From assembly GCF_029227855.1 (NCBI RefSeq), contig NZ_CP074357.1: a stretch of 64,000 bases of DNA; one strand, 5' to 3'. A program made the position numbers. Shown here one piece after another: positions 6,001-12,000 of the stretch. This DNA is from Escherichia coli. Lineage in GTDB: Bacteria > Pseudomonadota > Gammaproteobacteria > Enterobacterales > Enterobacteriaceae. How positions within the stretch are numbered: the stretch's first letter is position 1; every line of letters begins with the position of its first letter.

Positions 6001-9000
6001 CGTCCGGGGTTTGTTTTGGATCTATGTCCAATGTCGGCCAGACGTGGCCCTGATGATTCTTGCCCTTTGTACAGGAAGTGATTAAGTGTACTGAGCGTTC
6101 AGAGAACATTATCTTCCTTACATACCCATAGAACAGCTTTCTAAGAACGGTGGGCTCGCCTGAAAATTACAAATCAGCCCCTTTCACGGCATCATTTTGA
6201 TTCTTCGCGTCTGCCCCCAGTAAGATGACCGGTTTTCTGCATGACAGTGTTATTCCTAACAAACGCAACACAAAACCACGCCAGCCAGAGCAAATTTTTT
6301 CATTTGCTGCGTAAAGCCTATTGTTTTCTCTTTTAAGCTTCGCCCACTCGTTACAGAGGGTAACATCATCAAGCGCTGTTATATGCTTCGCCTCACCTTC
6401 GACGATAACGGTATGGATACCGTATGCTGTAAATCTCATACTATTTTCCAGAACCCAGTTGCGGTATTCGTCGAGTCCACCTTCGGAACCGGTAGCTCTG
6501 CGCCACATTTCAATTTGCTTGTGTGATGGGTCAAGTGTACTTGTCATTGAAGCCTCGTCTCAGCGATAACGCTTGAAATAGCCCGCTTTGGTCATCATGA
6601 AATTAGCCATCTGACTGGCGATTTGATTGTATCTTACTCATAGTGCCCTACCTATAGGTTAAAAAGGGGCATTTTCGCTTTATAGCGTGTTCAGCAGCAT
6701 CAATCCTCCCAAGAAAGGCTGGCTTATTAAGCCGGTCCATCATTTTCTGTATATCTCTCATCAATTTTTATATCCGCCCTGGAGTGCACCGTTCAAGCAC
6801 ACCGATTAGGCAGATAGTCACTAGTTAACTCTTTACTAGTGACTAAATTCCATTGATATACGTGACAACGTCACGTCATGAAAGCTTATAAATGCCTATT
6901 TTTCATACAATGGGATTTAATTAGGAGTAAATCCCATAGGCTTACATAAGGATGACAATTAAAAGCGTTAAATATCAACCAGATAGAATGATTACCCCCA
7001 ATTAATGGGCTCATCACATTATTTCACTGGCTGGGGTTATTGCTGGCATATCTGAAAGTGCTAATATGTTAGTCATTAGTAATTAGTAAAGCCTTTACTA
7101 AACGCGTTTCTACGTAAATTCTATAGGTTTTATAGTGTCCTACCTTTGCTCAAATCAAAATGTTCTGACATACCAAAATGGAGTGTAAAATGACTCAAAA
7201 CCAGGGTTCTGAGCCAGTACCGGCGAGCCGGACAGGGCAGCTCATCAGCGCCCGGGATATGGCCATGCAGAAATTCGAAGAAGGGATGCGGTTAATCTCG
7301 GAAGCGTCGGAACTGTGCGGTCTCTCTCTCTTCACCAGCAGAATTATGCAGCCCAACGCATTTGGTCTTCCGTCGTCACTGGATCGCACCATCGAGGAGG
7401 GGCGTAAGGAAATTGACCGTAAAACGTGGAAAAGGCTCTTTGAAGAAACAGGTATGGACCGGTACTGGAACCATAAGCAAAAAGAAGCCTTTAACGAATC
7501 CCTTCGTACGGATCCGCCCGTCGCTTCCCTGGAGATTGTTAAGGGAACATTACAGCATGCACTGGCTAACAGACGAGACACCCTTGCAGAAGGTTTCGTT
7601 GATGTTCTCAACAAGCTTGACCGAAGTTTCAAAAGCAATGCCAGGCAATATACAATGCCAAAAAAGCTTGTTCTTCGGGGGATTTTTCCTGGTGTGAACG
7701 TGCTGAGGTACAACGGTTTCTCGCAGGACAATCACTTTTGTTTACGCGACTTTGAGAATATTGTATGCATCTGTTCTGATACTCCAACACCTGCAACCGG
7801 CGGTGGGCTGAGTATGGTCGACAGGCTGACGGCCATGAGAAATACAGAATTCACAGGCGAGGTCAGTGATGAGAATGGCTGGCGGTGTCGCCTGTTTGAG
7901 AATGGAAACGTTCATATTTGCATCGACAGTATCTCGCTTCTGAATGCTCTGAACGATCTTATCAGCATATATTTTGCAAACCAGCTTCCGGCCGCAGGAA
8001 AAAAATGATGATTGAAAATGATAAAGAAAAAAGCCTGAACGATGCTACCCCGCCAGAGGTGCAGAATGACATCCGCAGCGAATCCACTGAAAAATCAAAG
8101 GAAATGGGTCGTTCAAGGTACTCATCTATCGCGATGATCGATTACTTCAATGCAATCGAACGTCTGTGCAAAGAGAAAGAAATTAACCCGGAAAATATCG
8201 ATCTGAGCTTCAAAGTTCACTGGCTCAGAAACGCTGTTGGCGGCTCGTTTGCAAGGTCACAGGAGATGTTCGCGGAGTACCAGAAGTATGTTAAAGAGGT
8301 TCCTGAAGAGGCCCGTTACCTGGATATACCCGATGAGGTAAAGGTTGCACTCGGCGATATTATCTCGTACATCACCTGGCACTACCGTAGAAGCTATACC
8401 GCAATACAGAATGATAGTGTTAAAAAAGCTGAAGCACGTAGCATGCAGCTGGAGGAGGAGGTAACGCAGCTGTTACAGCGGCTTGAGCAAAGCGCTACCG
8501 ATATGGATGAGCTGAAACTTGAGAATCAGGCACTACAGGGTCGATTAGAGATCCGGGACAGTACCGTCAAGGAGTTAGAAACAAGGCTGAATGTTGCCGA
8601 AGCAGAACTCGAAACCTGCCATCACCAGTTAGATAGCACACGGCATGAATTGAGCCTCGCACAGCAGTCAAATGACTCACTCTCCCAGCAACTGGCTGAA
8701 CGTAAAACAGAGATCGCTGGTCACCTTGAATATCAAAAAAAGCTGAACGAAGAGATCAACACGCAGCGTTCTGATAACGCCGGTCTTTCCAGACAATGCG
8801 ACCAGTTAAGTCAGACTGTGTCAGATACAAAGGCAGAGAGGGACAGGTTTGAACAGGAATTGATTGCTGCACAGAACCTTTGTACTGAGCTGAAAAGTGC
8901 ACTGTCCGGGAAAGAGGGTGACCTGGTGGCGGTGAATGCCGAGCTTACTGAACTCCATAAACTAAACGAGTCGCTGAGCGCCGACCTGAATAAAGTAACT

Positions 9001-12000
9001 TTGGTCAGCCAGGGCTATGAAGCGGAAGTGGCTGAACAAAGCAATGAACTCAAAACGCTCCAGGCCAAAGTAATGAAGCTGGAAGCTACCCTGGAGGCGG
9101 AGAAAACAATCTCAGAATCCCTAAAAGGCACCATTGATACATTAACTGGTGCAATGGCAGGGGGAGGTACTGGAAAGTCAAAACAGCCGCGTAGCAGAAA
9201 AACATCATGATAAATGAAGCCAGGTTGATACACTTCTCTGCATCCCCTGGCACATAAGAACTTCTGCGGACATTCAGCCCGTCCGCAGGAGTTTTCGTCC
9301 TTCAGTCAACAAATGCACTACCTTTTTTGAGTCTCCACTTTCCAGAGCAGAAAACACGTTACCGATTCTACCAACAGCTTGTATCTGAGTGATAACCCCA
9401 GTCTTGTAATCATCTAGGATCCCTGACAGGAAAGCGTTCAGTTTTGTCTGTTCGCTTAGCGAAAGCATGTAGGACATTTTTTCTCCATTTTAAGCAGGTG
9501 TGTCAGTTGAAAGAGGTTTGCGTGATTCTGGAAAATGAGGCAGCACCATAGTTTCAGATGCTGTGGTCGCATCCCAGTGCCACCATCCATAAGGCCCATA
9601 TTCACGGTTGTAATAATCTTTTTTGAGTTGCTTTCGGGCCAGATAAGCAGGAGTGGCCATACCAAATACTTCCATCGGGAACGGCTTATCGCTTTTTGTG
9701 TCGAGCAGGTAGAAGTCAGGGAACACCTCACTAATACTCGCATCATAACGCATGGGCTTAACGTACTGCCGGTGCTCTGCATCCAGCTTTTCTGCAACAA
9801 CCGCCTCATAGGAGGAGTCCAGAGGTATCCAGTTCTCGCTAACGTGCATCAGCACAATTTGATGAGCTCTTACAGAAGGGCCTCTGCCGGTTACCGCAGC
9901 TGGTGACGTCAACGCAAAGACAACTATTTTCGCCCCGGATTTCCATGCTGCGTACTCCGATGAAAATCGTTTCTTTACGCTATCCCAATGGACTTCTGAA
10001 TTGAAAAAAATCAGCGGTAGCCCCCCAAAATTCCGCAGGGGTAAAAATTTAAGTGGCTTCTCATGCTTTTCAGCATCGTAGCGAGGTAAAACTGACAGGA
10101 GCATGAGACGTTTATCACTCATCGCCTGTGATGAAAGACGCTGAATTTGCGACTGAGCGACAGGTTGTTTCGGGTCAGGTACACCAATGAATAAATGGTC
10201 ACCTATGCAGGCTCTGCCGGTACGAATTTGTTTAGCGGTTTCAAGCAGACGATACCGTACCAGTGAATCGTTACGTTTCCCTGCCATTTTCGGGTACCAG
10301 ACATTCAGACCAGACTCTGTCCACAAAAGACTAAGCAAGCCCAGGAGGGTCATTGAGGCCTGACCTCCTTCTGGTCGCTGAACATGGGGCAGGGGAGGCA
10401 CTTCTGATTTTTCAGGAGGATCTTTCTCTGTCATACCGATACCGAGCCTTACAGCCATATCACCTTCGGTTGTAATCCGGACCACACCACTCGCATATCC
10501 TTTCAGGCCGGTATGCCGGGCATCAAGGGAGAAGAATACACAGGAAGGATCATGCTCAATGCCCGTGTTAGCGGCTTTGACGAGAATAAAGGCATCACCG
10601 TTCGGTAAAGCACGAACATAAAGTCGCTTTTCTCCTTTTCCACGACATCCGCAGGTGATGACTGATTTTTGACCTGAGGTGTGGTGTGCCTTTTTAAGAG
10701 CCGACTGCCACCCTTTAGCAAACTCATCCTGCGTTTGAAAGTCAGGTGAATACCTTTTGACGTTTGGATCGTCGTCGTAAGCAATCATCACTGCGAATTT
10801 TTGGCTCATAGTAGTCTCCTAAACAGGAAGTTTAATATCCCAACCAGAGCAACACTTCCTGAGCGTCATACTGTTCCTTTACGCCCATGTCGCTAAAGAA
10901 TTCTTCGAAATCTGTTTCGGGAACGCAATGCCTGGACAGTTCTTGTAATGCTCGTTCTTTAGATACCGTCTCACCTTCAGCTGATTCGAAATACGTCATG
11001 GTTGACCTCTGACATTATTACAACAATCTTAAGCATTTAAATTGATGAAGGAGCTCAGGTCAGCTGACTTCGTCGTAAAACTGCCGCAAGCGCTGGGAGG
11101 CTGCAAATTCAATTCGTGACTTCAGCAGTTTGGCGACGGCCGCAAAGACATCAACGACCACGGAGTTCCCAAACTGTCTGTAAGCCTGTGTATTGGACAC
11201 AGGGATACGGAAAACACTTTCCCCGGGTTTATCGAAGCCCATTAGCCTGCTGCATTCACGTGGCGTTAGCATGCGTGGCCGACGGTCCATGTTGTATGTG
11301 TTATGGAAATCAGTTTCTCCCAGTTCATGAGACCAGCCCCGATCAATAAGAATTTCAGATCCGTCTTTCATATAGCGGCTTGAGAGGGTTCTGGTGACAC
11401 TATTAACATTGGAAGGATCTACTAGTCCAAAACCAAAACCATTGCCTTTTGCCGCATGTTTCTTTGCATAGTTGTATAAGTACTCCCAGAGTTTAGGGGA
11501 GAGGATGTATTTACTATCTACGCTCGGATCCAGTAAATCTGAGAGAGAAGGGCGCTTGTCCGGATAAAAGTCTTTAATGTCTCTCAGAGTAAAACCGTCT
11601 TTCAGACGTAGGTCGCGGCGAAAACCAATAAGGACGATACGTTCACGGTGCTGGGGTCGGAAATGACGGCCATCGATGACTTTAGGATCATCCGCGCCCG
11701 TGCTTTCGCTGTTTGCGACGTCGTAGCCAAGCTCATCGAGCGTTTTCATGATGATGTTAAAGGTATTACCCTTATCGTGACTCTTCAGATTTTTTACGTT
11801 TTCCAGAACAAAAATTGCAGGTTGTTTTGCCCGGATGATCCTGGCCACATCAAAGAAGAGCGTACCCTGAGTGTCGCACTCGAAACCGTGTTTGCGACCC
11901 ATAGAGTTCTTTTTACTGACACCGGCGATGCTGAATGGCTGGCATGGAAATCCCGCAAGAAGAACATCATGATCCGGGATAGAGGCATCGATAAATTTGT

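Follow-up and report, generated by a model that had tools for sequence, protein, structure and literature searches.

What does a two-gene operon on the backbone of an IncHI plasmid encode, and how is it controlled, when the long spacer in front of it carries exact palindromes? IncHI1 and IncHI2 plasmids bring multidrug resistance to Salmonella Typhi and mcr-1 and carbapenemase genes to Enterobacterales, and the greater part of their backbone still carries the annotation 'hypothetical'. The 64,000-nucleotide stretch of Escherichia coli DNA analysed here (the window) is IncHI2 plasmid backbone, and the operon in it was found to be intact in 1147 of the 1148 IncHI2 records, that is, in essentially every one; it is also present in IncHI1, and synteny holds across IncHI1, IncHI2 and diverged relatives. 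Its conserved control region is among the most elaborate on the plasmid. A previous sequence-only reading of the locus had suggested a plasmid module rather than cargo, in line with this backbone location. The operon was absent from the literature that we found on DUF4942, on IncHI together with KfrA, and on the IncHI2 transcriptome or evolution.

The first gene (7190..8008, plus strand) encodes a stand-alone DUF4942 protein of 272 amino acids. Its match to Pfam PF13708 (E = 2.8e-26; 92.8 bits against a gathering cut-off of 25) covers residues 77-265 on profile positions 2-187 of 190, identifying it as a DUF4942 member; it belongs to a narrow, IncHI-restricted subfamily, and a profile search run to deepen the alignment reached no distant members. 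Although a 276-residue product starting at 7178 had been proposed, the gene most likely starts at 7190, as supported by a ribosome-binding site (GGAG, 7180-7183), the RefSeq start and the alignment of homologues. The second gene (8005..9210, plus strand) encodes a coiled-coil protein of 401 amino acids and is preceded by its own ribosome-binding site (AGGA, 7996-7999). Its start does overlap the stop of the first gene in ATGA (8005-8008), as had been claimed, and the two genes are tightly linked in every lineage examined (intergenic gap -4 to +20 bp), supporting a two-gene operon. Between this operon and a convergent 67-aa gene lies a hairpin, CTGCGGAC-N9-GTCCGCAG followed by GAGTTTTC (9264..9288), which is probably a bidirectional terminator.

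The coiled-coil protein consists of a variable N-terminus (residues 1-35), a conserved helical head (36-135) with an invariant helix-GGS-helix motif (L74, R75, G79 and G80), a heptad coiled coil (136-385) and a basic tip (386-401). The rod of about 250 residues described before is real: hydrophobic periodicities of 3.5 and 2.33 residues reach a power of 139-180, the mean being 10, and prolines are absent between residues 110 and 394. The C-terminal 25 residues contain five K/R against one D/E, and a K/R-rich tail is present in every full-length homologue. Matches to coiled-coil families were restricted to the rod. For the head, Pfam, PDB sequence and hhalign searches gave no match to a known DNA-binding family; phmmer and profile searches of the PDB returned only lamin-type coiled-coil noise, and NCBIfam and PHROGs were uninformative. 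A head profile searched against 1.84 billion representative proteins recovered 15 proteins, of which one was a repeat-protein artefact and the others all belonged to its own family. AlphaFold2 modelled the head with low confidence (pLDDT 57), and a Foldseek search with this model against the PDB returned nothing at E < 1, the many helix-turn-helix regulators listed being non-significant.

The control region (6548..7189) lies between a 126-aa gene on the minus strand and the DUF4942 gene. Its 630-bp spacer contains five perfect inverted repeats with arms of 7 nt or more and loops no longer than 12 nt, compared to 0.55 ± 0.75 in dinucleotide shuffles, and none of 500 shuffles reached five; in the whole window, four inverted repeats have arms of 11 nt or longer, against 0.28 expected. 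The two palindromes reported before are both exact, one at 6815-6845 (TAGTCACTAGT-N9-ACTAGTGACTA) and one at 6860-6876 (ACGTGAC-AAC-GTCACGT), though 14 nt rather than 15 bp lie between them. Two further conserved dyads had been overlooked, a perfect one with 10-bp arms (6910-6937) and one with 9-bp arms (7083-7101), as had the phased 7-bp repeats TTAGT(A/C)A of which the large palindrome and the promoter-proximal dyad are composed. The large palindrome is thus exact but better described as part of an array of 7-bp iterons.

Four elements, A to D, can be distinguished together with a promoter. Site A (6814..6846), a putative upstream operator that includes the 11-bp-arm palindrome, comprises four phased heptads: ATAGTCA and CTAGTTA in forward orientation, a 5-bp gap, and TTACTAG and TGACTAA as reverse copies. 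A resemblance of the string ACTAGTTAACT in site A to the TrpR operator was dropped, the CTAG not being conserved in homologues and the spacing being wrong. Site B (6860..6876) is the dyad ACGTGAC-AAC-GTCACGT. Site C (6910..6937) is the perfect dyad ATGGGATTTA-N8-TAAATCCCAT, and a conserved TACnAT (6906-6911) stands ahead of it. The predicted operon promoter (7040..7067, plus strand) has a -35 element TTGCTG (7040-7045), a 16-bp spacer and an extended -10 element TGcTAATAT (7059-7067), with a transcription start inferred at about 7074; it was read by eye, and a strict consensus scan of the sequence did not call it. Site D (7069..7101), a putative promoter-proximal operator, lies immediately 3' of the conserved extended -10 element, at about -6 to +28 of the predicted start, and consists of the tandem TTAGTCA-TTAGTAA-TTAGTAA, a gap of AGCCT and an inverted TTACTAA. 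The arrangement TTAGTAA-N(1-12)-TTACTAA is expected 0.00 times per 64 kb, and 8 of the 37 heptad matches in the window fall in the two phased clusters at A and D.

Conservation of the palindromes at homologous loci, named in the sequence-only reading as a point on which it could fail, was then assessed by footprint comparison of lineages whose coiled-coil proteins are 26-81% identical, and the palindromes are conserved. Mean conservation over five diverged lineages is 67% at site A and 73% at site D, compared to 28-41% between sites; the core of site B, GTGAC-N3-GTCAC, is 100% conserved while its 3-bp spacer is free to vary (33%), the arms of site C are 93% conserved, and the TGnTAnnAT -10 element is kept in diverged loci (71%). 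All four elements are still conserved where the proteins share just 26-47% identity. IncHI2 and IncHI1 have the inverted heptad pair, with starts 12 bp apart, at both A and D; two more diverged lineages have it at D. The distance from A to D is 262, 270, about 239 or 286 bp; with such variation the helical phase is not kept, and DNA looping with a fixed helical phase was rejected.

It is the right-hand part of the control region, about 380 bp (6810-7189), that is conserved together with the plus-strand operon. Since the sites persist beside the operon even where another gene or a group II intron lies to its left, the earlier framing as a divergent promoter does not fit; the sites go with the plus-strand operon. 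A regulon had also been suggested, but every motif is unique on the complete 264-kb IncHI2 plasmid, indicating that control is local. Likewise, a search of 100,044 species genomes found the B-C composite only in IncHI2 fragments. Several hundred R478-like IncHI2 plasmids carry a Tn3-family insertion between the control region and the operon, which is itself intact, so that native regulation is not indispensable. In sum, the sites are real, above chance, conserved, unique to the locus and linked to the operon.

Based on these data, we propose, with a probability of roughly 45%, that the operon is a locally autoregulated module of the IncHI backbone, in which the coiled-coil protein represses its own operon through iterated operators. 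We infer which protein binds which site, repression by that binding and any role in maintenance as follows. Transcription from the extended -10 promoter would cover first the DUF4942 gene and then the coiled-coil gene, whose translation is coupled to it. The 250-residue rod would dimerise the coiled-coil protein, whose helix-GGS-helix motif may contact the 7-bp iterons TTAGT(A/C)A; the basic binding unit would be the inverted heptad pair with 5 bp between its members, and the extra direct copies could allow cooperative or oligomeric loading. Occupation of site D, which overlaps the transcription start, would repress the operon, and site A, 262 bp upstream, would serve as an auxiliary operator. 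A second factor, with the DUF4942 protein as first candidate, would act on dyads B and C. In analogy to KfrA, the nucleoprotein complex may in addition have a part in maintaining or positioning the very large plasmid. Co-variation between motif and head points in the same direction, as seen in a single lineage: in L010, the most diverged one, the repeats at the positions equivalent to A and D change jointly to T(C/T)ATAAC, and the putative recognition helix of the head reads GGRIHNATTAF instead of GGSFARAQEMF, which tentatively suggests the coiled-coil protein as the heptad binder.

Three different types of site imply more than one binder, and DUF4942 could instead bind the heptads. In that case the DUF4942 protein would be the sequence-specific binder and autoregulator, acting on the heptads and/or B and C, and the coiled-coil protein, not reading sequence itself, would be a structural or effector partner. 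A 563-aa N6-adenine DNA methyltransferase of the same plasmid has DUF4942 as its N-terminal module, a place where a DNA-recognition or clamp domain is plausible; in addition, a weak match to a phage DNA-methyltransferase family was obtained. DUF4942 has also diverged less than the coiled-coil protein (54-70% compared to 26-47% identity), which fits the invariant core of site B. We consider DUF4942 unlikely to be the autoregulator.

More doubtful still is that the dyads are operators for outside regulators of the plasmid or host, such as H-NS/Hha partners or IncHI transfer regulators, within a wider circuit such as thermoregulation, and that the operon's own products are uninvolved. An H-NS gene is located within a few kb of the operon in every lineage, the control region is AT-rich, and the core of site B is invariant despite strong divergence of the local proteins, as a conserved external factor predicts. 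However, no element recurs elsewhere on the whole IncHI2 plasmid, which would be unusual for a global regulator, and the heptad motif co-varies with lineage. We know of no E. coli regulator consensus that is matched by the dyads.

A broader role, which we regard as rather improbable, is that the coiled-coil protein founds a head-domain family confined to IncHI plasmids and, with a 'headless' DUF4942 as a methyltransferase accessory module without its enzyme, assembles on the four-element region as a cis-acting anchor that positions or maintains plasmids of 200-300 kb, beyond serving as an operator. Alternatively, the rod could be a TlpA-like thermometer in the temperature-sensitive biology of IncHI plasmids, which are known for temperature-sensitive transfer. 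The ParA/ParB and ParM genes of the plasmid are located about 95-100 kb from the operon.

The palindromes could also act as nucleic-acid hairpins, that is, as terminators, RNA leaders or single-strand DNA promoters or initiation signals in conjugation, rather than as protein sites. The single-stranded fold of 6800-7110 is far more stable than that of shuffles (z = -5.3), dyad C in L010 carries a symmetric, stem-preserving double change to GCGATATA/TATATCGC, and a terminator-like hairpin is present in the spacer at 6717-6737. However, the stability arises from four separate short hairpins and not from one long Frpo-like structure, and a long single-strand promoter of this kind was not seen in the fold. 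Moreover, site B keeps its 5-bp core alone, with uncompensated changes in the flanking arms; the direct and inverted heptads at A and D are not explained by a hairpin; T-runs are absent after A, B and C; and there is no Rfam match, the sole hit, a hammerhead match below threshold (22 bits, with 52 required), being taken as chance. Hairpins as the functional form are therefore very unlikely.

Least probable of all is an anti-phage defence or anti-defence effector module of the SMC, Lamassu or Wadjet kind with a control region tuned to it. LmuB and JetC in PADLOC and SMC in NCBIfam do match the coiled-coil protein, and many of the nearby genes are for DNA modification or nucleases (Dcm, an SNase-type nuclease, HNH endonucleases, a DpdC-like gene). 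However, these matches cover just the coiled coil (residues ~130-385, at the widest ~88-385) far below cut-offs (e.g., 43.9 bits against 567), the protein has no ATPase head with Walker A and B motifs, as SMC, LmuB and JetC do, and DUF4942 gave no PADLOC match. The names 'Smc' and 'ATP/GTP-binding' that some records give to the coiled-coil protein were rejected as reflecting coiled-coil composition and its sole P-loop-like string (AGGGTGKS), a stretch of the C-terminal tip that homologues do not conserve.

The closest known counterpart of local autorepression by a coiled-coil protein is KfrA of the IncU plasmid RA3, and also of IncP-1 plasmids RK2 and R751. KfrA proteins carry a coiled coil behind a helix-turn-helix head of the KfrA_N type (PMC7821693). 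The KfrA-like architecture proposed for the protein here holds for the head, the long coiled coil and the basic tip, but membership through a KfrA_N head does not: KfrA_N (PF11740) did not match the protein at E ≤ 0.1 or any of 11 family heads at E ≤ 10, whereas RA3 KfrA, as positive control, scored 4.1e-20. When the head alignment was compared by hhalign to RA3 KfrA and to a 7-member KfrA_N alignment, the probability was 0.3-0.4%, with 0.3% for the KfrA_N alignment, and the best local alignment fell on the helix-GGS-helix motif with no statistical support. With no detectable KfrA_N homology, the protein resembles KfrA in layout and putative regulatory logic and is an architectural analogue rather than a demonstrable member of the KfrA family.

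In RA3, experiments showed a KfrA operator of five 9-nt repeats around the -10 element, of which three are direct and two inverted; its motif is unique on the plasmid, autorepression is about 500-fold, and binding is needed for plasmid stability (PMC7783346). In RA3 KfrA, a helix-turn-helix with a GGG-S turn was mapped, and the basic C-terminal tip binds DNA non-specifically (PMC7783346). Similarly, the protein here is a plasmid-backbone protein (401 aa, compared to 355 aa in RA3) with a small N-terminal head containing helix-GG(G)S-helix, a long rod and a basic tip; in silico, its predicted promoter carries short, plasmid-unique repeats of mixed direct and inverted orientation, and a helical partner gene is adjacent. 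Different from RA3, the repeats are of 7 bp rather than 9 bp and form two clusters spaced by 262 bp, B and C are present as additional, unrelated dyads, the partner is DUF4942 rather than KfrB or KfrC (RA3 KfrC matches Pribosyltran), the coiled-coil gene is second in a translationally coupled operon, and the korA/korB/incC partition context is missing. If the protein acts as KfrA does, the KfrA-type class, at once autorepressor and filament-forming maintenance factor, would gain a sequence-unrelated head and the IncHI group.

TlpA of the Salmonella virulence plasmid is described as a temperature-sensing coiled-coil autorepressor (Hurme et al. 1997, as cited in PMC2676509). TlpA shares with the protein here a plasmid-encoded head, DNA-binding in TlpA and putatively so here, and a long coiled coil, and only the architecture is comparable, TlpA repressing its own gene and repression being predicted here; TlpA is reported to be KfrA-related, whereas the head here is not detectably so. 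As for the first gene, it resembles the fusions of DUF4942 to N6-adenine methyltransferases in plasmids and phages in being a bona fide DUF4942 member, and across 250 residues it is 22% identical to the DUF4942 module of the 563-aa methyltransferase on the same plasmid type. In contrast to these fusions, it has no methyltransferase domain and is always paired with the coiled-coil gene, a pairing that, if the coiled-coil protein acts like KfrA, would give DUF4942 its first functional context.

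The segment 6100-9300 shared 100% identity with many IncHI2 plasmids from Escherichia, Salmonella and Enterobacter, matching 1177 plasmid records, one example being pD90-1, typed as IncHI2A. Here, the plus-strand operon comprises gene 1 (7190-8008), encoding a DUF4942 protein, and gene 2 (8005-9210), encoding a 401-aa coiled-coil protein annotated as "hypothetical" or, in some records, as "ATP/GTP-binding" or "Smc". It is flanked on the left by minus-strand genes for a 126-aa protein of unknown function (6167-6547) and a 221-aa DUF6884/DpdC-like protein (5444-6109), and on the right by a 67-aa ORF and genes for DUF1173, a Dcm methyltransferase and an SNase-type nuclease. 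The ATGA overlap of genes 1 and 2 proposed in the sequence-only reading is real and is preceded, at a distance of five nucleotides, by an AGGA ribosome-binding site. The start of gene 1, previously placed at 7178, is most probably 7190, based on a GGAG six nucleotides upstream, the RefSeq start and the homologue alignments, which begin there. A hairpin (9264-9288) followed by GAGTTTTC is probably the terminator of the operon.

Both palindromes described earlier proved exact (6815-6845 and 6860-6876), although they lie 14 nt apart instead of 15 bp. Within the 630-bp spacer there are five perfect inverted repeats whose arms are 7 nt or longer and whose loops do not exceed 12 nt, compared to 0.55 ± 0.75 in dinucleotide shuffles of the spacer, in which five was reached in none of 500. 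Two dyads had been overlooked, namely dyad C (6910-6937, ATGGGATTTA-N8-TAAATCCCAT) and dyad D (7083-7101, TTAGTAAAG-C-CTTTACTAA). Moreover, the large palindrome is more than a simple dyad: both site A (6814-6846) and site D (7069-7101) consist of 7-bp units, TTAGT(A/C)A, which follow one another with an exact 7-bp phasing. Site A reads ATAGTCA-CTAGTTA, a 5-bp gap and TTACTAG-TGACTAA, and site D reads TTAGTCA-TTAGTAA-TTAGTAA, the gap AGCCT and TTACTAA. The heptad matches 37 times in 64 kb, with eight of these matches inside clusters A and D, and the chance expectation of TTAGTAA-N(1-12)-TTACTAA is 0.00 per 64 kb. Five further perfect inverted repeats with 10-12-nt arms (28324-28348, 29703-29731, 40783-40804, 40899-40929 and 41413-41437) were found in the window against a chance expectation of 0.7; those inspected lie between small ORFs as GC-rich stems and look like ordinary terminators. 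A direct repeat, ATAGTG(C/T)CCTACCT, and the string CTATAGGTT occur close to each end of the spacer (6640-6660 and 7121-7145), and ACCTATAGGT (6650-6659) is a short palindrome in its own right, all of which are kept among close relatives only.

The coiled-coil protein belongs to a very small family, with nine clusters in the clustered protein database and 15 representatives recovered by a head profile search of 1.84 billion proteins. Diverged homologues came from Photorhabdus (45% identity), from a plasmid contig of Enterobacter (35%), from a metagenomic relative (81%) and from further contigs; those of IncHI1 plasmids, among them pHCM1 of S. Typhi, are ~40% identical overall and 58% identical in the head. 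In all diverged loci located, the DUF4942 gene lies directly 5' of the coiled-coil gene (gap of -4 to +20 bp), and the DUF1173, Dcm and SNase genes lie downstream. The left neighbour differs: besides the DpdC-like operon, it can be an FRG-domain gene, a group II intron or, at a distance of 1.2 kb, a gene for a 151-aa protein. Even so, the four DNA elements stay 5' of the DUF4942 gene, indicating that they belong to the plus-strand operon and not to a shared divergent promoter, as had been supposed. Across five diverged lineages, the core of site B (6860-6876), GTGAC...GTCAC, is 100% conserved and its 3-bp spacer 33%; the arms of C are 93% conserved, site D 73%, an extended -10 element 71% and site A 67%, compared to 28-41% for the stretches between sites. 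The two inner heptads, which are inverted and start 12 bp from each other, recur as a pair at A as well as D in IncHI2 and IncHI1, and at D in Photorhabdus and Enterobacter. Thus, the palindromes are kept in homologous loci, the opposite of what the sequence-only reading had named as evidence against itself, and the reading was right about conserved operators and a coupled operon.

Several features of the left flank were also recorded. The 221-aa protein is strongly DpdC-like (PADLOC DpdC, E 4.1e-59; Pfam DUF6884), and a homologue encoded on an IncHI1B plasmid bears the name "tgtA5 cluster protein 2". The gene stands by itself, with neither dpdA nor dpdB close by, an odd setting for a gene of 7-deazaguanine DNA modification. 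IS1-type insA/insB ORFs (4703-5400) adjoin the minus-strand operon at its 3' end. This operon is truncated in the window, since relatives carry more genes at this place, as far as an H-NS gene. In a Photorhabdus tasmaniensis contig (L006:2147-4512), the group II intron, comprising an RVT_1/GIIM reverse transcriptase and an HNH maturase-like ORF, is directly upstream of the conserved control region.

While an automatic consensus scan of the region did not call a strong promoter, a predicted promoter (TTGCTG, 16-bp spacer, TGcTAATAT; 7040-7067) lies directly upstream of site D, and TGnTAnnAT is kept in diverged loci. This promoter would start transcription near 7074, so that site D would span about -6 to +28, a placement that would be classical for a repressor. 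Next to dyad C, a conserved TACnAT (6906-6911) might represent another -10 element; a -35 to pair with it was looked for and none was found. In the middle of the spacer, a terminator-like hairpin GGCTGGCTTATTAAGCCGGTC (6717-6737), called on both strands, might bound a short divergent transcript.

The sequence-only reading had also suggested looking for a regulon, by searching for the palindromes elsewhere on the plasmid. We assembled the complete IncHI2 plasmid pHS13-1 (264,344 bp), in which the control region is identical, and scanned it for each element. B, C, the tandem heptads and TTAGTAA...TTACTAA were confined to the control region, with one additional inverted heptad pair, intragenic, at 229.5 kb. 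Furthermore, an exact-pattern scan of 100,044 species genomes for the B-C composite returned two IncHI2 fragments and nothing else. On the evidence of these scans there is no regulon, and control of the operon is predicted to be local.

The most diverged lineage, L010, bears on which protein reads the sites. There, T(C/T)ATAAC takes the place of TTAGTAA as the repeated motif at the A- and D-equivalent positions (10 copies in 14.8 kb, five of them within 360 bp), the head of the coiled-coil protein carries GGRIHNATTAF where other lineages have GGSF(A/K)R(A/S)QEMF, and the B core is unaltered. The joint change of heptad and head with a constant B core, in this single lineage, is consistent with A and D being read by one locally encoded, fast-evolving protein, which may be the coiled-coil protein itself, and with B being read by a more conserved factor. 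As the most likely mechanism, we propose that the coiled-coil protein would autorepress the operon locally via the heptad iterons, and that a second factor would act on dyads B and C. This mechanism is given a probability of about 0.45, slightly below even; our confidence that proteins bind here and that the region controls this operon is much higher.

The suggestion that the locus is backbone rather than cargo held up. Of 1148 IncHI2 records, 1147 have an intact coding region (7144-9210), with at least 98.1% identity, and the control region is 80-95% identical in ~440 records, mostly of the R478-like lineage. In that lineage, a Tn3-family element follows GGTCCTAC near 7143, and the operon now lies behind rcnR/rcnA, far from sites A-D. 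The genes of the operon are thus core backbone, whereas its native regulation can be lost while the plasmid persists. The Tn3-family element (L003:4096-7400; also in the plasmid segments L004, L027, L028 and L029) has a split transposase ORF. Between the two IncHI2 lineages, the control region is only ~91% and the coding region 98.1% identical, and a ~45-bp patch between sites C and D (6985-7035) is wholly replaced.

The gene 1 product clearly belongs to DUF4942 and carries no further domain. A second DUF4942 protein, of 563 aa, is encoded on plasmids of this type; it joins an N-terminal DUF4942 to an N6-adenine methyltransferase domain with an NPPF motif, and a ParB-HTH protein is encoded just 5' of it (L015:24895-27994 in pHS13-1-IncHI2, record 174595-177697). 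By this comparison, gene 1 is predicted to be an accessory module of the methyltransferase type with the enzyme missing. Structure prediction and fold searches for the gene 1 and gene 2 proteins gave no usable result. A Hammerhead_HH9 Rfam match within the DUF4942 coding sequence (7203-7267, minus strand; 22.1 bits, E 0.047, gathering threshold 52 bits) is sub-threshold and was attributed to chance.

The gene 2 protein has a variable N-terminal stretch of 35 residues, a conserved head (residues 36-135; invariant positions include L74, R75, G79 and G80), a proline-free rod (136-385) with the 3.5- and 2.33-residue periodicities typical of heptad coiled coils, and a C-terminal tip rich in K/R. 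In the predicted structure, the head contains helix 69-80, a GGS turn and helix 84-100. Matches to SMC, lamin, crescentin, LmuB and JetC were limited to the rod and far under family thresholds, and the name "ATP/GTP-binding" was rejected, as it is based on a C-tip string, AGGGTGKS, that is not conserved.

The protein had been likened to KfrA-like plasmid proteins, which stands for its architecture and is unsupported for homology. The KfrA family is defined by a KfrA_N helix-turn-helix head plus a coiled coil (PMC7821693). Unlike this, the gene 2 head is not KfrA_N: none of the heads of 11 family members gave a Pfam match to it, whereas RA3 KfrA scores 4e-20, and hhalign of the head against a seven-member KfrA_N alignment gave a probability of 0.3%, although the best single local alignment, not statistically supported, superposes the two helix-GGS-helix motifs. 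For KfrA proteins, predicted secondary structure rather than sequence similarity has served as the criterion of classification (PMC7783346). RA3 KfrA is a dimeric autorepressor (~500-fold repression) with a GGG-S turn in its helix-turn-helix and a basic C-tip that binds DNA non-specifically; its operator, five 9-nt repeats around the -10 (three direct, two inverted), has a motif found nowhere else on its plasmid, and stable plasmid maintenance requires KfrA-operator binding (PMC7783346). Like RA3 KfrA, the IncHI2 locus has short iterated repeats of mixed orientation at the promoter, which are unique on the plasmid, and a protein composed of head, rod and basic tip. By analogy, we file the gene 2 protein as one that would work like KfrA, and not as an established member of the KfrA family.
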